A DNA stretch of 64,000 bases from Dehalococcoidia bacterium (lineage in GTDB: Bacteria; Chloroflexota; Dehalococcoidia; Lucifugimonadales; G958296245): positions 3,156,347-3,220,346 of the forward strand of contig CBDHEI010000002.1 in the NCBI GenBank assembly GCA_965262055.1, in the 5' to 3' direction. Position 1 is the first letter of the stretch. Every line of letters begins with the position of its first letter. The translations under genes were made by a program, and so were the position numbers. This document shows, in pieces, positions 7,559 through 47,996 of this stretch. Below the pieces are notes generated by a model, which was given only the letters and a program-made list of their open reading frames with translations, was not told the origin of the DNA and ran no database searches.

Positions 7559-7936
7559 TTGACCAGAATAAAGAGGGGTGTCACCAGACACCGGCGCCAC
7601 AAGAAGATACTAAGCCAGACCAAGGGCCACAAGGGCGGGCGCCACACGCTTGTCAGGCAGGCCCGCGAGTCGCTGATCCACGCGCTCAGCTACTCCTACG
7701 CGCACCGCAAAGAGAAGAAGGGCGACATGCGCAGGATGTGGAACGTGCGCATCAACGCGGCCGCCCGCGCCAACGGCCTCTCATACAGCAAGCTGATCCA
7801 CGGGATGAAGCTTGGCAGCATCGAGGTGAACCGGAAGATGCTCGCGGAGCTCGCGATGCTCGACCCCGGCGGCTTCTCCAGCATTGCGGCCCAGGCCAAG
7901 CAGAACCTGGGGCTCGCCTCGACCGCCGCGGCTTAG
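7559..7936 (+). CDS. rplT: 50S ribosomal protein L20
   Basis: M(TTG)TRIKRGVTRHRRHKKILSQTKGHKGGR...RINAAARANGLSYSKLIHG. Confidence 0.9.
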   Translation: MTRIKRGVTRHRRHKKILSQTKGHKGGRHTLVRQARESLIHALSYSYAHRKEKKGDMRRMWNVRINAAARANGLSYSKLIHGMKLGSIEVNRKMLAELAMLDPGGFSSIAAQAKQNLGLASTAAA

Positions 7937-7942
7937 CGCTGC

Positions 7943-8563
7943 CTACTCGTACAGCCTTCGAAGCCAGCTTACGAATCTGTTGCTGTCTTCCCCCTGAGTG
8001 TTCAGGTCCCCTGCGCCTATTGCCAAGCCCATAGGACGGGGGTCGCTTCGCGTCGCTAGCCAAGCGTAGACCTTGGCCCTCAGAGTCTTTCCCTCAGCGA
8101 ACTTGCGGTCAGCTTCAGGGATGCCGTTGACGTAGTCTTCGGACAAAGGCCACACCGCATCGTCGTGCGGAATCATCTCAGCGATGAAGTCCTCGAGTTC
8201 GCCCGGCGATTTGTTATCGGGCATCATCCAGATGCCCACACGGGGCCTGCCGGCTATAATCGTACCGCCCGGATCTGGACTGCTGGGCGGTTCCATACCC
8301 GTTGCTCGTATCCTATCCACCACGGCCTGCCAGCGGGCGTTCGGATCGTCGTTCGCGTCCACCAGGATGCCAAGGGCGGTACGTTCTTCAACCAGTATCT
8401 CCCCGCGGATGCTACGTACGAGTGCAGGTACTCCATCCTTCTCTCGAATGGAGAACGGAGGCATCTTTAAGGAGGAACGTGAAAGGTGTAGAACAACGTG
8501 CATATCATCGCGACCTTCTACAAGAAGCACGCGCTCTTCGTCCGATGCCCCGCCGTCCGTCAT
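7943..8563 (-). CDS. small Toprim-like protein (DUF4276/DUF4435/RloB-like partner of the ABC-type ATPase); candidate nuclease
   Basis: RVLLVEGRDDMHVV provides the Toprim acidic Glu in a VEG context, and LGILVDANDD provides a DxD-type acidic cluster. The start lies 4 nt after the ATPase stop. The region is more AT-rich than its flanks. Confidence 0.55.
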   Translation of the reverse strand: MTDGGASDEERVLLVEGRDDMHVVLHLSRSSLKMPPFSIREKDGVPALVRSIRGEILVEERTALGILVDANDDPNARWQAVVDRIRATGMEPPSSPDPGGTIIAGRPRVGIWMMPDNKSPGELEDFIAEMIPHDDAVWPLSEDYVNGIPEADRKFAEGKTLRAKVYAWLATRSDPRPMGLAIGAGDLNTQGEDSNRFVSWLRRLYE

Positions 8564-8567
8564 AGGC

Positions 8568-9704
8568 TTACCTTACTTCGATCCCCTGCTCGGACGTGAT
8601 AGCCAGCTCTTCCTCCCAGTACTCCACGGCTCGCAACTCTCCGTCGCGCCGCGAGAGGCGAACGAGCACGCCCTCGGCCTCTTCGATCTCAGACGCCGCC
8701 TCCGCGAAGCCCCGTATGCAGTCCGAGCTGTGCGTCGTGGCGAAGACCTGCACGTTGTTCTCGTGTGCCGCCCGCAGGACCATACGCCAGTAGTCGCGCT
8801 GCACGGAATAGTGTATGCCGTTCTCGGCTTCGTCGATGAGCAGGAAGCCGTCGCGGCTGTTGGCGAGGGCGAGAGCGACTCCGAACAGGCGCAACGCACC
8901 GTCTCCGAGGCTTCTCAACGGGACGGGGTTTCTATGGCCTCTAAGCCTCACCATTGCCCGTCTACCTACTCTTCTGCCAATTGGCCGATCGTCGCCAACA
9001 ACGGCAACGGCGTCTATACCACTGCCGAAGACTGGTCTCAGGGCATCTACTGCTCGCTCCTGATCGTCTGTCAGAACCACGCCATCCCAGAGGCGTGCCA
9101 AGTCTATGTTGTTCAGCAGCCCCGGTCCCTGGGATTCGCATTTCATAGCTGGTAGCGGTTCGTCCTCGCCGAGCAAGCGGTGCATGTCTCGTCGCCTAGC
9201 TTGTCTCCTAGTTGTCTGGGGAACCAAGTGGGTAGCCAACTCGTTGAGAATAGTCCAAGTGAGTGCCTGAGTAGTTTCTCTGTACGTGGCCTTGAGCACC
9301 TGTATGGGAGCATCAACAGGAAAACCCTGTAGCCGAGCTTGTTGATCGTCTGGTATGCCCAACTCGATAGTCAGGAGATCCTCATCGTAGTCTGACCCAA
9401 TGGATATGCGGGCTTCCTGTGACATGTTCCTTCCGTAGAAGAGAGCACCCCAATCGGGCCTAAGTACACTGTCGCCATCTTCGTCGACAGTGGTGTACAC
9501 TTCCTCGCGGTCCCACAGCAGGCTGGATAAAGAGCGACCTCGCGAAGCGTAGACTGCGACGGCATCAAGTACCGTGGTCTTGCCGACACTATTCATCCCA
9601 GCCAGTAGGGTTACGCGGCCCAACCGCGGAATGGACAGCGCGTCAATTCCTCTGAAACCTCTTATCGACAGGTCCGGGAGGTGGAGTTGTCTCGCATCTG
9701 TCAT
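8568..9704 (-). CDS. ABC/SMC-like AAA ATPase (AAA_21/AAA_15-like)
   Basis: Walker A is LLAGMNSVGKTTVLDA, an ABC-signature-like motif is RSLGDGALRLF, and Walker B is FLLIDEAENGIH followed by ATTHS. Confidence 0.7.
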   Translation of the reverse strand: MTDARQLHLPDLSIRGFRGIDALSIPRLGRVTLLAGMNSVGKTTVLDAVAVYASRGRSLSSLLWDREEVYTTVDEDGDSVLRPDWGALFYGRNMSQEARISIGSDYDEDLLTIELGIPDDQQARLQGFPVDAPIQVLKATYRETTQALTWTILNELATHLVPQTTRRQARRRDMHRLLGEDEPLPAMKCESQGPGLLNNIDLARLWDGVVLTDDQERAVDALRPVFGSGIDAVAVVGDDRPIGRRVGRRAMVRLRGHRNPVPLRSLGDGALRLFGVALALANSRDGFLLIDEAENGIHYSVQRDYWRMVLRAAHENNVQVFATTHSSDCIRGFAEAASEIEEAEGVLVRLSRRDGELRAVEYWEEELAITSEQGIEVR

Positions 9705-9776
9705 GGGGCTGCTCCCCCGCGCCTGTTCCGTCTGCTGGACAGGGCGTACGGTCTCTGGTCAACTTCACACAGGGGC

Positions 9777-9782
9777 ATTATA
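9777..9782 (-). promoter_or_regulatory. possible -10 box (TATAAT on the minus strand) for the ATPase/Toprim pair
   Basis: The plus-strand attata at 9777-9782 reads TATAAT on the minus strand, ~70 nt upstream of the ATPase ATG. No clear -35 was found. Confidence 0.25.
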
Positions 9783-9867
9783 TCCCAAGGCTTGGTGAAC
9801 GCAGGTTTGATCCCTTATCTGGTGAGCGATACGCCGGATATCACGTAGGATCTTACCCGCGCATCGG

Positions 9868-10560
9868 CTATCGCAGCAGGGCGCGGATGTCTTTGACGAG
9901 GGACGCTGGGTCGAAGGGCAGGGTGTGAAGTCCGCGTAGGAGCCCTTCCCGGTCGATGAGGTAGACCGGGGCAGAGTGGGTTATGGTGTAGTCCTCGGCT
10001 ATGCCCTCGGCGAGTTCGCTAACGCCGCCGCTCCCAGTGCCTGAGCTCCCACGGCGTGCCTCCTGCGATTCCGACGGACCGACCTCCGCCGGGTCGATGT
10101 AGTAAGCAGTCCACACGGGCTGCAGGTCGGCCTCCTCACCTACCAGGAACGACCACGTGTCGACCATGCGCCAGCGCTCCGAGTAGTCGTGCGCCTGCTG
10201 CACGGAATCGCGGTCGGGATCGACGCTCACGGCTATGATGCCGACCTCGCGGGCGTCGGAGCCCAGCATTTCGTGCGCGTCCCGAAGGTGGGTGGTCACC
10301 ACGGGGCATATGTCTGGGCAGGCTGTGTAGAGGAAGGTGAGGACAGCGACGCGGCCCCGGAAGGCTTCAAGGTCTACGGGGTCTCCGAACTGGTTGACCA
10401 GGCTGAACGGTGGCGCTGGTTTTGGGTCCTCGAAGATGGTGCCTTCGGAGGGCCCAGGCTGCGAGCAGGCGGACAGGAGCGCGGCGAGGGCCAGTGCGGT
10501 TAGAAGCAGCCAGCTTCTGGACTCCGGCCTACGCCGGAGTGACGAGATGGGGGGCAGCAC
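9868..10560 (-). CDS. SCO1/SenC family copper chaperone (thioredoxin fold)
   Basis: VLTFLYTACPDICPVVTTHL carries the CxxxC motif. The signal/lipobox LLLTALALAALLSAC is present. ORF 9868..10737 was trimmed to the GTG at 10560 to avoid overlapping the upstream small ORF. Confidence 0.75.
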   Translation of the reverse strand: MLPPISSLRRRPESRSWLLLTALALAALLSACSQPGPSEGTIFEDPKPAPPFSLVNQFGDPVDLEAFRGRVAVLTFLYTACPDICPVVTTHLRDAHEMLGSDAREVGIIAVSVDPDRDSVQQAHDYSERWRMVDTWSFLVGEEADLQPVWTAYYIDPAEVGPSESQEARRGSSGTGSGGVSELAEGIAEDYTITHSAPVYLIDREGLLRGLHTLPFDPASLVKDIRALLR

Positions 10561-10592
10561 GGCGCCGGGTCGCCCGGTGCCCAATGGCCGGT

Positions 10593-10802
10593 TCAGGACT
10601 GGCCGAATCTCCGCTCGAGCAGAGCCGCCGCGGTGGGGACGGACACCGTGATCGCCACGCCGAGCGCCACGACGGCCCACTCCTCGATTATCAGCTCGTT
10701 GATCACTGAGAAGACTACGCCGAGCCCCCCCGCGCACGTGATCACGACCAGCACCGCAAGTAGGGGGAAGAGCAACGCCCGTTTGAATCTAAGCTTTTCC
10801 AT
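10593..10802 (-). CDS. small two-helix membrane protein inside the cox operon
   Basis: The 69-aa product has two hydrophobic helices (ALLFPLLAVLVVITCAGGLGVVF and WAVVALGVAITVSVPTAAALL). An SD-like gaggac lies upstream of the ATG. Confidence 0.45.
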   Translation of the reverse strand: MEKLRFKRALLFPLLAVLVVITCAGGLGVVFSVINELIIEEWAVVALGVAITVSVPTAAALLERRFGQS

Positions 10803-45610: not shown

Positions 45611-46297
45611 ATGCAAGCGCGCCGCTTCCAGGGGAAGACCCTGGCTTACGTCACAGTGGAGCCGGACGGGTACGAAGCTGGCCGTCAGTACCCCATGATC
45701 ATACTGCTTCACGGGTACGGCGCAAACATGGGAGACCTGGCCGGCCTCAGCGGCGTGCTGGGCGATTCCGGTTACGTCTACGCGATGCCCAACGCCCCCA
45801 TAGAGCTCCAGACGGGGTTTGGGATGATGGGATTCGCGTGGGCAGACCCGCCGGCGGGAGGCGAGGGCAGCGGCATCTACGAATCCGATGAGCGCCTTGG
45901 GGTGTTCTTCGAAGAGGTGATGGCCCAATACGGTGTGGAGGCGGGCAACGTAGTGCTCGGCGGCTTCTCCCAAGGCGGCATGATGAGCTGCCGCCTCGGT
46001 CTGGCCAGACCGGAGACCTTTCGCGGCCTCGTCTGCCTCAGCGGCGTGGTGCTGGATACGGACGGGTTGAAGGAACGGCTGCCGGGGGACAGGACACAGC
46101 CCATCTTCATGTCGCACGGAACGGATGATACGGTAATTCCGATAGAGTCAGCCCGGCGATCCCTGCAGCTCCTGCGGGCCGAAGGCTACGCTCCCCAGTA
46201 CCGCGAGTACGGCATGGGACACGAGATCAGGGCCGAAGTGCTCGACGATCTGACGCCCTGGCTCCATGAAGTACTTCCGCCGTTGGGGAGTAGCTAG
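45611..46297 (+). CDS. alpha/beta hydrolase (phospholipase/carboxylesterase family)
   Basis: MIILLHGYGANMGDL...LGGFSQGGMMS...SHGTDDTVIP...GHEI forms a Ser-Asp-His arrangement. Confidence 0.75.
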   Translation: MQARRFQGKTLAYVTVEPDGYEAGRQYPMIILLHGYGANMGDLAGLSGVLGDSGYVYAMPNAPIELQTGFGMMGFAWADPPAGGEGSGIYESDERLGVFFEEVMAQYGVEAGNVVLGGFSQGGMMSCRLGLARPETFRGLVCLSGVVLDTDGLKERLPGDRTQPIFMSHGTDDTVIPIESARRSLQLLRAEGYAPQYREYGMGHEIRAEVLDDLTPWLHEVLPPLGSS

Positions 46298-46482
46298 CGC
46301 CGCCTCGGCGCGCAACGGGGACGCTTGGCGAAATTGCGCATATACGTGAGGAAACTCAAGAAGGTTCGCTGGCATCGTCACGAACTGGAAACACACAGCC
46401 GCGAATACGTAACGTAGGCGGCTAGTGCAGTCGCTTTCAGCGGAGTATCTCCGAATAGTGTCGAAATTCACAATCTCGACAA

Positions 46483-46511
46483 TTGATTGAGTTGCGTATC
46501 TTTGCTATATT
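46483..46511 (+). promoter_or_regulatory. candidate promoter of tRNA-Ser
   Basis: TTGATT (46483-88), a 17-nt spacer, then TGc-TATATT (46506-11). The predicted transcription start is a few nt before the mature tRNA 5' end at 46521. Confidence 0.5.
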
Positions 46512-46520
46512 GGAATCCTT

Positions 46521-46612
46521 GGAGGGATCGCATAGTGGTCTAGTGCGGCCGCCTGCTAAGCGGTTAGGGGGAGAAATCCCTCTCATGGGTTCGAATCCCA
46601 TTCCCTCCGCCA
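46521..46612 (+). tRNA. tRNA-Ser (anticodon GCU), long variable arm, CCA encoded
   Basis: The acceptor stem is GGAGGGA/TCCCTCC. The anticodon stem-loop is gccgc-CTGCTAA-gcggt. A long variable arm and the T-loop ggttcgaatcc are present. The 3' end is gCCA. Confidence 0.9.
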
Positions 46613-46694
46613 TTTTCAGAAGATGAGTAGGTAGCCAAGTCGTTTGACGAATAAGCTCGCCTCGGCGGGCCTAGTTGAATAGACCTCCCTTCCC

Positions 46695-47996
46695 ATGGTA
46701 TCCACGCCTACCGCACCAAGCAGCTTCCATATCTGGACTATCGGCTGCCAGATGAACAAGGCCGACTCCGAGCGCCTGGAAAGTGCGCTGGGCCAGTTGG
46801 GGCTTGGGGAAACCACAGTCGCTGCGGACGCCGACGTCATCGTGCTCAATAGCTGCGTGGTGAGGCAGAGCGCCGAGGACAAGGTGGCCGGCATGCTGGG
46901 GTCGTTGAAGCACCTCAAGCGGCGCGACCCGGAAAAGGTTATCGCGCTGATGGGGTGCATGGTGGGGCCGAAGACGGACGCGCTGTCCACGCGCTTCCCG
47001 CAGGTCGACGTATTCATGCGCCCGCAGCAGTACGAGCCGCTGTTCGACCTTCTCAGCGACCGCATGGGCGTGGACGTAGAGGGGTGCATCGGGCCGCTGA
47101 CTGCCCGGGCCGCCGTTACGGCGTACATACCCATCATCCACGGCTGCGACAAGTTCTGCACATTCTGCATCATCCCGTACCGTCGGGGTAGGGAGGTCAG
47201 CAGGCCCGTCGCGGACATCGTCCGCGAGGCCGAGCTGCTGGCGATGCGCGGGGTCAGGGAGGTGACGCTGCTGGGCCAGAACGTCGACTCCTACGGCCAC
47301 GATCTGGCGGGGACGGTCGATCTGGGCGACCTGCTGGCGACCGTCAACGGCGTCGAGGGTCTGGAGCGCGTGCGCTTCCTGACGTCGCATCCGAACGACA
47401 TGAGCGACCACATCATCGACCAGGTGGCCGAGCTCGACAAGGTGTGCGAGCACATCAACCTGCCGTTCCAGGCTGGCGACGACGAGGTCCTGCGCCGGAT
47501 GAGGCGGGGCTACACCGCCGGCGACTACAGGACGCTGATAGACAAGATCCGCGACAGGATACCCAACGTGTCGCTCAGCACAGACCTGATAGTCGGCTTC
47601 TGCGGGGAGACGGACTTGCAGTTCGAGCGGACACTCGACATGCTGCGCGACGTCAGGTTCGACAAAGTACACTCCGCCGCCTACTCGACGAGGGAGGGTA
47701 CGATCGCGGCCCGCAAGCTGGTGGACGACGTGCCCGACGAAGATAAGAAGGCCAGGCTGAAGGCCATAGAGAGCCTGCAGGAGCAGGTGCTGACCGAGAT
47801 CAACGCCGGCCTACAGGGAACAAGAGTCGACGTCCTGGTAGAGGGCACGAGGCGCGGGAAGGCCCAGGGCCGCAACCGGAACGACAAGATAGTCTACGTG
47901 GCGGGAGCCGAAGACCGTATCGGAGAGGTCGTCACCGCGACGGTCGAGGAAACGAGCCCATGGTCGCTGCAGGCCCGATTAGAGGCGGCGGCGTAG
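46695..47996 (+). CDS. miaB: tRNA-2-methylthio-N6-dimethylallyladenosine synthase (radical SAM methylthiotransferase)
   Basis: FHIWTIGCQMNKADSE...IIHGCDKFCTFCIIPYRRGRE carries the CxxxCxxC motif, followed by a TRAM-like C-terminus. Confidence 0.85.
   Translation: MVSTPTAPSSFHIWTIGCQMNKADSERLESALGQLGLGETTVAADADVIVLNSCVVRQSAEDKVAGMLGSLKHLKRRDPEKVIALMGCMVGPKTDALSTRFPQVDVFMRPQQYEPLFDLLSDRMGVDVEGCIGPLTARAAVTAYIPIIHGCDKFCTFCIIPYRRGREVSRPVADIVREAELLAMRGVREVTLLGQNVDSYGHDLAGTVDLGDLLATVNGVEGLERVRFLTSHPNDMSDHIIDQVAELDKVCEHINLPFQAGDDEVLRRMRRGYTAGDYRTLIDKIRDRIPNVSLSTDLIVGFCGETDLQFERTLDMLRDVRFDKVHSAAYSTREGTIAARKLVDDVPDEDKKARLKAIESLQEQVLTEINAGLQGTRVDVLVEGTRRGKAQGRNRNDKIVYVAGAEDRIGEVVTATVEETSPWSLQARLEAAA

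Follow-up and report, generated by a model that had tools for sequence, protein, structure and literature searches.

In the PARIS defence system the ABC ATPase AriA sequesters the Toprim nuclease AriB until a phage protein triggers its release, and AriB then cuts tRNA (PMC11464382, PMC12409363); P2 Old is a mechanistic analogue and is also tRNA-targeting according to a report (PMC12445682). The AbiL system of Lactococcus (AbiLi + AbiLii) is a two-gene operon in which a Rad50/SMC-type ABC ATPase is followed by a small OLD-like Toprim protein, and this second protein, AbiLii, superimposes on the C-terminal region of Xanthomonas OLD, 6njv (PMC13064643). A further entry of this kind is PDC-M38, one of 145 untested phage defence candidates put into PADLOC by Payne et al. 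(bioRxiv 10.1101/2024.01.29.577857) and present in the supplementary cassette table of that study; the 145 candidates were derived by guilt-by-embedding, that is as genes found inside BREX, DISARM or type I restriction-modification systems, and according to that study such embedded candidates occur mostly non-embedded. Here we describe a two-gene cassette in a 64,000-nucleotide stretch of Dehalococcoidia DNA ("the window" below; contig CBDHEI010000002.1, positions 3,156,347 to 3,220,346) that by sequence is a PDC-M38 on every count that PADLOC uses: one protein matches the A model and the other the B model, their genes are adjacent, and their order is A then B. The pair is thus already catalogued, and a PADLOC run would give the call automatically.

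The cassette lies between the thrS-infC-rpmI-rplT genes on one flank and SCO1-orf69-CtaG-COX4-COX3-COX1 on the other. An earlier note on this DNA, made from the letters alone, had described two minus-strand genes with a 4-nt gap between the infC-rpmI-rplT and SCO1 operons, and the open reading frame (ORF) coordinates agree:

8568-9704, minus strand: ATPase gene, 378 aa, ATG start; an SMC/Rad50-type ABC ATPase, PDC-M38A, AbiLi-like
7943-8563, minus strand: small gene, 206 aa, ATG start; DUF3226, PDC-M38B, a probable OLD-like Toprim nuclease (effector)
8564-8567, minus strand: intergenic spacer of 4 nt between the ATPase gene and the small gene

The small protein matches Pfam DUF3226 (PF11536) at E 2.1e-46 (158.8 bits against a cut-off of 27) over profile positions 2-208 of 208, and its sole PADLOC match is the PDC-M38B model PDLC04624 (E 1.8e-35, residues 9-206 on profile positions 12-219 of 220). 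The ATPase matches the PDC-M38A model PDLC04611 at E 1.4e-75 (residues 10-378 on profile positions 3-383 of 383). Its match to the AbiLi model PDLC02336 is weaker (E 1.9e-44, profile positions 4-340, or 337 of the 340 positions), and matches to two AriA models (4e-22 and 4.9e-16) are well below both; GajA is matched in its ATPase part only (3.9e-16), HEC-01A is matched weakly (1.9e-14), and PtuA is matched as well. The earlier note could not assign the pair to a validated system; a family can be assigned (DUF3226 together with PDC-M38), and it still contains no validated system.

Pfam AAA_21 (E 1.5e-17) and AAA_15 (E 7e-17) both match the ATPase above cut-off, and a Foldseek search with its predicted fold returned PtuA and the heads of Rad50 and SMC proteins with E-values of about 1e-11 to 1e-9, in agreement with the initial reading of an AAA_21/AAA_15-type ABC/SMC-like ATPase. 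The AlphaFold2 (AF2) model used for this is of moderate overall quality (mean predicted local distance difference test score, pLDDT, 66). By sequence the PDB gave P-loop-level matches only, and NCBIfam gave matches far below threshold only. A total of 2893 ATPase homologues were found, and conservation was read from an alignment of 38 homologues, in all of which the residues called invariant here are present. The three motifs originally picked out by eye (GMNSVGKTT, SLGDGALRLF and a Walker B) are all found in the translation, and an H-loop histidine completes the set:

9573-9599, minus strand: Walker A / P-loop GMNSVGKTT, residues 36-44; G36, N38, G41 and K42 are invariant
8898-8912, minus strand: ABC signature-like SLGDG, S265-G269 (motif SLGDGALRLF, 265-274), invariant
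8829-8843, minus strand: Walker B L288-L-I-D291-E292 with catalytic Glu, within FLLIDEAENGIH (residues 287-298)
8730-8732, minus strand: H-loop His325, invariant
9135-9404, minus strand: hypervariable insert, about residues 101-190, indel-rich and unconserved in the alignment

D291, E292, E294, N295, G296 and H298 are invariant along with H325. The protein is an SMC/Rad50-type ABC ATPase in which Walker A, signature, Walker B with its Glu and H-loop are intact. The insert is a different matter: nucleotide alignments to two relatives that carry the cassette at the same junction (L001 and L169, below) break at 9132-9538, the proportion of nonsynonymous differences (pN) within the insert is 0.41-0.49 with saturated synonymous divergence (dS), the insert is the lowest-GC stretch, and pLDDT is below 50 for residues 151-214. 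We propose that it may be the sensor or specificity region of the ATPase.

In the 206-aa partner the earlier note had found VEGRDD near the N-terminus and a VDANDD cluster beyond it, had taken these for the Glu...DxD layout of a Toprim or OLD-type nuclease, and had placed them about 60 residues apart. Both motifs are there (residues 15-20 and 68-73), the order fits and the acidic residues are conserved; the distance from E16 to D69 is 53 residues. The AF2 model of the small protein (pLDDT 90.9, predicted TM-score 0.86) has the element order strand 1-helix-strand 2-helix-strand 3-helix-(short strand)-strand 4, followed by a helical C-terminal half, and the candidate active-site residues are located as follows:

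8516-8518, minus strand: Glu16 of VEG, where strand 1 ends; candidate catalytic/metal-binding residue of a Toprim
8348-8359, minus strand: D69-A-N71-D72, where strand 3 ends; corresponds to DxD of Toprim domains
8192-8215, minus strand: N117...G121-E122-L-E124, beyond strand 4; another cluster of conserved polar/acidic residues

P115-D-N117 and G121-E-L-E124 both follow strand 4. Two alignments were built, one of 34 close homologues and one of 46 members reaching down to 20-35% identity. E16, D69, N117, E122 and E124 are invariant in the first; D69, P115 and E124 are invariant in the second, with conservation of 90% or more at E16, G17, A70, N117 and G121. At position 71 the wider family mostly has Asp, which gives a canonical D-x-D; the window's subfamily has Asn there, and a distant paralogue at locus L021 has Glu.

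Fold and profile comparisons lead in the same direction. The best full-length Foldseek match in the PDB is the Toprim protein of retron Eco2 (Ec67) (probability 0.90, TM-score 0.46), the next is the C-terminal Toprim region of Xanthomonas OLD, 6njv (0.80, 0.47), and Toprim domains of RNase M5 and DnaG appear lower in the list. Pfam OLD-like_TOPRIM has weak matches in 10 of the 46 family members (best E 0.0037), and there are single weak matches to OLD-like_TOPRIM_1, DUF4435 (one of 46, E 0.064) and Toprim_2; RloB has no Pfam match at E<=10 in the 46. When the family profile was aligned to P2 Old with hhalign, the LLVEGxDD segment fell on Old residues 391-437 (E 2.2e-4, probability 45%), and E16 aligned with the LLVEGK motif of P2 Old; the homologue search for the P2 Old C-terminus found only five fragments, so this is a comparison of a profile with a single sequence, and fragments of the 391-437 region carry PF20469. 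Because fold order, conserved acidic residues, weak profile matches and fold matches agree on the superfamily, the small protein is best read as an OLD-like Toprim, as had been supposed at the outset, and DUF3226 as a whole is probably such a family.

How, then, does the window pair compare with the systems described above? Beside PDC-M38 itself there is no structural difference, and the window instance is simply solo, in a Dehalococcoidia chromosome, between housekeeping operons. It shares with AbiL the two-gene order of a Rad50/SMC-type ATPase followed by a small protein, here a probable OLD-like Toprim, and AbiLii and DUF3226 both resemble 6njv; unlike AbiLii, the window small protein matches neither the AbiLii model (PADLOC, E<=1) nor RloB. 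With PARIS it would share an ABC ATPase sensor with a separate Toprim effector, and the ATPase has the AriA match given above. However, AriB is a 35 kDa DUF4435 protein, whereas the partner here is a 206-aa DUF3226 protein with no AriB match in PADLOC, and AriA is about 53-55 kDa, against 378 aa for the window ATPase. The OLD nucleases (P2 Old, class 1/2 OLD, GajA) have in common with it the ABC ATPase and, going by weak profile, hhalign and fold matches, the Toprim chemistry; there the two domains are fused, whereas here they are encoded by separate genes, and the DxD motif is D-A-N in the window's subfamily. Gabija differs in addition by its GajB/UvrD-like helicase, for which the window cassette has no counterpart among its neighbours. 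HEC-01, an ABC ATPase plus Toprim pair embedded in Hma, has the same architecture, and relatives of the window cassette also sit inside Hma; the protein families are different, and the window small protein has no HEC-01B match. The OLD/AbiL/PARIS logic recognized at first sight is reflected in the AbiLi and AriA matches of the ATPase. The cassette is a member of neither AbiL nor PARIS, since its partner protein matches neither AbiLii/RloB nor AriB/DUF4435, and it is not OLD or Gabija because its two domains are on separate polypeptides. By analogy, it probably belongs to the wider AbiL / PARIS / RloAB class of an ABC ATPase with a separate Toprim nuclease.

The two genes travel together. A scan with one genome per species gave at least 578 loci with relatives of the small protein, and an ATPase homologue (42-64% identical) lies directly upstream of the DUF3226 gene in all 84 of the 84 loci retrieved. 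The pairing extends to copies only 29% identical: one in Plesiomonas, on a 396-kb replicon where it adjoins P2-like tail genes, and one in Klebsiella FDAARGOS_1316, where the pair is the sole cargo, besides rop and a DNA-binding protein, of the 4-kb ColE1-type plasmid NZ_CP070094.1. The Plesiomonas pair (L165, NZ_CP027853.1 246302-248046) is about 3.3 kb downstream of genes for tape measure, tail protein X and a gpD/VgrG-like protein; P2-like prophages have accessory-gene hotspots, and the region is reminiscent of these. A tblastn search found no match in phage genomes and matches in only two of 72,556 plasmids, and the ATPase gene of the Klebsiella plasmid has no megablast match in 5,426 complete E. 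coli genomes. The DUF3226 family comprises at least 2342 clusters at 50% identity with E<=1e-3; the small protein matches no NCBIfam family, no PDB entry by sequence (single or profile) and no viral relative in PHROGs or BFVD. An identical copy of the window's small protein is absent from the contig collection.

The closest relatives (L005-L084; small protein 48-73% identical) come from many phyla, among them Dehalococcoidia/Chloroflexota, Latescibacterota, Spirochaetia, Bryobacterales and Gemmatimonadota, and further Rhodothermales, Nitrospirales, Binatia, Acidimicrobiia and Pseudomonadales. Many belong to metagenome-assembled genomes (MAGs) with sponge-derived names ('jk18x...' for Ircinia sponge MAGs; SB0661 and RHO2_bin from sponge-symbiont papers). 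This suggests cross-phylum sharing of the cassette within sponge microbiomes, with the proviso that the sponge bias may reflect database composition.

Two loci among the relatives carry variants of the pair. At L021 a second pair (L021:1934-3654, minus strand) stands back-to-back with the first (L021:4796-6627), with HTH/PIN-like small genes between them; in this second, very divergent pair the small protein shares 20% identity with that of the window, and the ATPase has AbiLi as its best match (2.6e-55). One island thus holds two paralogous PDC-M38 cassettes. At L065:7367-9543 (minus strand) an AbiLi-like ATPase of 350 aa, close to the L021 paralogue, is followed after about 220 nt by a Fic/DOC protein (Pfam 1.2e-19), with no DUF3226 gene in that position; here the same ATPase scaffold may have exchanged its effector.

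The neighbours of the pair were surveyed within 6 kb at 80 genome loci. In nine of these the pair is found between HmaB (a DUF1156 methylase) and HmaC (a DUF499/HEPN_Swt1 ATPase), HmaC is within range at 13, and a DrmMI/type IIG-like methylase at 11; other neighbours include MNT/HEPN pairs, a Schlafen-AlbA_2 protein, an FRG-TPR protein (PDC-S15) and a type II methylase. At least one defence-type neighbour is present at 28 of the 80 loci, and at the remainder the pair is solo among housekeeping genes. Such Hma/DISARM-like embedding in uncultured bacteria is an independent repeat of the guilt-by-embedding signal from which PDC-M38 was defined.

Base composition and empty sites both bear on the origin of the window copy. 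The G+C fraction (GC) of the cassette is 0.583, compared with an average of 0.639 over the window (sd 0.017 for windows of 1762 nt), which makes it the lowest-GC segment of that size in the 64 kb (fraction at or below, 0.001), and positions 9001-9600 fall to 0.553; GC at third codon positions (GC3) is 0.64 in both cassette genes against 0.81-0.91 in thrS, infC, rpmI, rplT, CtaG and COX1. The earlier note had remarked on AT-richness at about 8900-9800; windowed GC reveals a stronger effect that involves the whole cassette. The sole other stretch as GC-poor (about 0.555-0.563) is at 46050-46950; it spans the 3' end of an esterase-like gene and the intergenic DNA up to a miaB-like gene, and no mobile element is apparent there.

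The junction itself was examined in 80 metagenome loci whose rplT is 48-85% identical to that of the window. None of these more distant relatives has the cassette, and in at least 17 of the 80 rplT and SCO1-orf69-CtaG-COX4-COX3-COX1 abut tail to tail with about 10-110 nt between them. Because these relatives show empty sites, the rplT|SCO1 junction is ancestral and the cassette is an insertion: a horizontally acquired, foreign two-gene module. A purN gene lies between rplT and SCO1 in some distant relatives (L088:1275-1901, L104:1112-1726), so the junction is not strictly invariant even without the cassette. We also considered the junction as a general insertion hotspot and rejected this, the larger gaps in L088 and L104 holding housekeeping purN and not mobile cargo.

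The proposal of a horizontal insertion is therefore sustained by empty sites and by anomalous composition, with the amendment that the event is neither recent nor unique to the window genome. The opposite case, an ancestral pair with host-like composition, describes the locus in part, because three related Dehalococcoidia carry the cassette at exactly the same junction: the pair is ancestral there for the close relatives, but not for the wider clade, and its composition is not host-like. The three are:

L167: 98.5% nt identity to the window; ATPase 98%; small protein, first 41 aa only on the contig
L169: COX1 96%, rplT 93%; ATPase 68%; small protein 74% (frameshifted)
L001, complete Dehalococcoidia MAG chromosome: COX1 94%, rplT 89%, thrS 91%; ATPase 57%; small protein 73%

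Flank proteins are thus 89-96% identical in same-junction comparisons, against 57-68% for the ATPase and 73-74% for the small protein, and the divergence between alleles is concentrated in the ATPase insert at about residues 101-190. Such divergence of alleles in one slot is an arms-race signature. Synonymous divergence is about 0.9-1.55 in the cassette and 0.38-0.70 in the flanks, and the excess fits allele replacement by recombination. For the ATPase, exchange is supported because the syntenic L001 protein comes no higher than about 95th when database homologues are ranked by their match to the window ATPase, while the L001 small protein is the closest full-length homologue of the window's, save one 99%-identical metagenome copy. 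The ratio of nonsynonymous to synonymous divergence (dN/dS) is 0.09-0.29 overall, and 0.09 against an allele whose ATPase is 89% identical (L168), so the cassette genes are maintained by purifying selection.

A candidate control element lies upstream of the ATPase gene:

9773-9790, minus strand: promoter-like element CCTTGGGATATAATGCCC, 18 nt, about 73 nt upstream of the ATPase start, with TATAAT at 9777-9782

This element is invariant in the window, L001, L167, L168 and L169, despite ATPases that are 57-98% identical, and TGGGnTATAAT recurs in Dehalococcoidia whose cassettes lie elsewhere in the genome (L007, L008), there 79-96 nt upstream of the cassette. A sigma-70 consensus scan made no call at CCTTGGGATATAATGCCC, because there is no -35 match. 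We infer from its sequence and its conservation that it acts as a promoter, and since it is kept across alleles and stands before cassettes elsewhere, the mobile unit seems to bring its own. In the alignment of the left junction with relatives, length is variable beside SCO1 and the core is conserved. At L168:100-2620 an IS21-type insertion sequence (Mu-transposase_C-like + IstB) lies between the promoter-like motif and the ATPase gene, an insertion that would uncouple that cassette from its promoter.

For what the pair does, we think a phage-defence mechanism of the PARIS/AbiL class reasonably probable, by analogy with those systems. An ATPase oligomer would hold the DUF3226 Toprim protein inactive and would serve as the infection sensor, with the variable insert doing the sensing; a cue from the phage, combined with the binding or hydrolysis of ATP, would release or activate the DUF3226 protein, which could then cut nucleic acid (DNA, or tRNA as AriB and P2 Old do) with a metal site formed by E16, D69-x-N71 and E124. 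Cleavage would halt replication of the phage and might also cost the infected cell its life.

A number of points weigh against this proposal. Each line of evidence for a Toprim fold is sub-threshold when taken alone (Foldseek E 0.03-0.1 with TM-scores of about 0.47, Pfam E of 0.004 or more, hhalign probability 45%), and in the window's subfamily the DxD motif has Asn in place of its second acid. The function of PDC-M38/DUF3226 is a prediction only, in a family without a validated member; we found no main-text mention of DUF3226, PF11536 or PDC-M38 in the papers searched, and HEC-01, a related ATPase + Toprim candidate embedded in Hma, conferred no defence when Payne et al. assayed it (10.1101/2024.01.29.577857). 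The window cassette is solo, between housekeeping operons and with no adjoining defence gene; part of its excess synonymous divergence could be due to weaker codon or GC3 constraint and not to allele exchange; and the sequence yields no trigger, target or stoichiometry.

Of the other explanations, the one that survives best is selfish addiction, in which the ATPase restrains a toxic DUF3226 protein and the pair is kept through post-segregational killing or because it stabilises the DNA that it sits in, with no specific anti-phage benefit. In favour of this are the compact, tightly coupled genes with a probable promoter of their own, the 4-kb ColE1 plasmid that has the pair as its sole cargo, a patchy occurrence across phyla and the co-occurrence with MNT/HEPN and other toxin-antitoxin-like genes; PARIS, too, formally behaves as a type II toxin-antitoxin system (PMC13064643). 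Nonetheless, repeated embedding in Hma and beside DISARM/type IIG-like methylases fits a sensor of invaders better, and a hypervariable insert suits a sensor of changing invaders better than it suits a plain antitoxin. We consider addiction without defence unlikely, and note that the two are not mutually exclusive.

The same neighbours raise the question of whether the pair is an accessory or regulatory module of methylation systems (Hma, DISARM-like, type IIG) that works only with them, the window copy then being an orphan with little or no function. The nine HmaB-HmaC loci and the 11 with DrmMI/type IIG-like genes are as this would have it, and PDC-M38 itself was defined from embedded instances. 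But neighbours of this sort are missing within 6 kb at 52 or more of the 80 loci and in the window, solo alleles have intact genes that evolve under purifying selection (dN/dS 0.09-0.29), and the embedded candidates of Payne et al. mostly occur non-embedded, all of which makes a purely accessory role quite improbable.

A third possibility is that the pair was gained for a housekeeping role, as an accessory to DNA repair or recombination in the way of RecF (ABC ATPase) with RecR (Toprim) or of SbcCD/Rad50. RecR has a Toprim domain, the ATPase fold matches Rad50/SMC heads, and there are weak N-terminal matches to RecF (2.9e-6, far below cut-off) and SMC_N. The best matches by far, however, are defence ATPases (PDC-M38A, AbiLi, AriA, GajA, PtuA), and the pair has no coiled-coil, no Mre11/SbcD-like partner and no zinc finger or HhH typical of RecR; its absence from the junction in 80 of 80 more distant relatives, its foreign composition and its hyper-divergent alleles at one locus likewise argue against such a role, which we regard as very unlikely. 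That the cassette is a decaying remnant with no current function in the window genome is scarcely credible despite truncated or frameshifted copies in relatives (L003, L015, L058, L059, L070, L169) and the promoter separated by an insertion sequence in L168, since the window has both ORFs at full length and all their catalytic motifs preserved, comparison with the 89%-identical allele gives a dN/dS of 0.09, and some of the frameshifts in long-read MAGs are possibly assembly errors.

The broken relatives deserve separate mention. The ATPase is cut to 112 aa at L003:5658-5996, genes are split in L015, L058, L059 and L070, and the small gene is frameshifted at L169:7148-7764; either the cassette decays often, or the long-read MAG assemblies contain indel errors.

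The pair is little new in kind, as it is already listed as PDC-M38 and has the architecture of AbiL, PARIS and RloAB. Its value is in a clean comparison of empty and occupied sites for PDC-M38, in a one-slot series of alleles whose ATPases are 57-98% identical with their divergence concentrated in one insert of about 90 residues, in the independent replication of the Hma/DISARM-like embedding signal in uncultured sponge symbionts, and in a conserved residue set for mutagenesis (K42 and E292 in the ATPase; E16, D69 and E124 in the small protein). Were it validated, a small Toprim effector family of at least 2342 clusters would join the defence repertoire and would help to test whether all ATPase + Toprim pairs work like PARIS. 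We offer more tentatively, as something we think less likely than not, the idea that DUF3226 is a distinct, compact class of OLD-like Toprim effector whose ATPase partner has an exchangeable hypervariable insert, with a common pool of alleles that moves among sponge bacteria of at least ten phyla and that, in one Dehalococcoidia lineage, is swapped or diversified at the fixed rplT|SCO1 slot. Should that be so, with tRNA/RNA or a new substrate as target and the insert setting the phage cue, the defence repertoire would gain a new, validated family, together with a natural set of alleles on which sensor specificity could be mapped.

The ends of the cassette and the spacing of its genes are as follows:

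9705-9867, minus strand: left junction region from the SCO1 stop to the ATPase start, with a GGGGGAG ribosome-binding site 7-8 nt before the ATG
7937-7942: right junction, 6 nt from the rplT stop to the stop of the small gene, the two genes being convergent

The rplT ORF occupies 7559-7936 and the stop codon of the small gene begins at 7943. The cassette had been said to end 6 nt from the rplT stop with no terminator hairpin, and the junction sequence, site scan and folding all concur: the scan found no terminator-like site at the rplT/cassette junction, and 7900-7990 folds no better than shuffled sequences on either strand (z +0.97 and -0.83). No integrase or transposase adjoins the cassette in the window, and a search for flanking repeats or a target-site duplication gave short repeats at chance level only. 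The 6-nt layout is common to L001 and L169, and the 4-nt spacing of the two genes recurs in the gene calls of L002 (5996/6001) and L001 (7996/8001); from this layout, translational coupling of the ATPase and small genes is probable. The ATPase ends in an invariant ...EQGIEVR (window 8568-8590) whose codons overlap the likely ribosome-binding site of the small gene, with Q373, I375, E376 and R378 invariant in the 38 homologues, and the constraint on this tail could be due to protein docking, to translational coupling or to both.

Beyond the left junction, the SCO1-like ORF at 9868-10737 was mechanically called as 289 aa from a GTG start, while the SCO1 proteins of relatives are 213-230 aa, and the N-terminal extension is probably not translated. 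The window SCO1-like protein is 67% identical to those of relatives against about 90% for its neighbours, a faster evolution than in the remainder of the operon.

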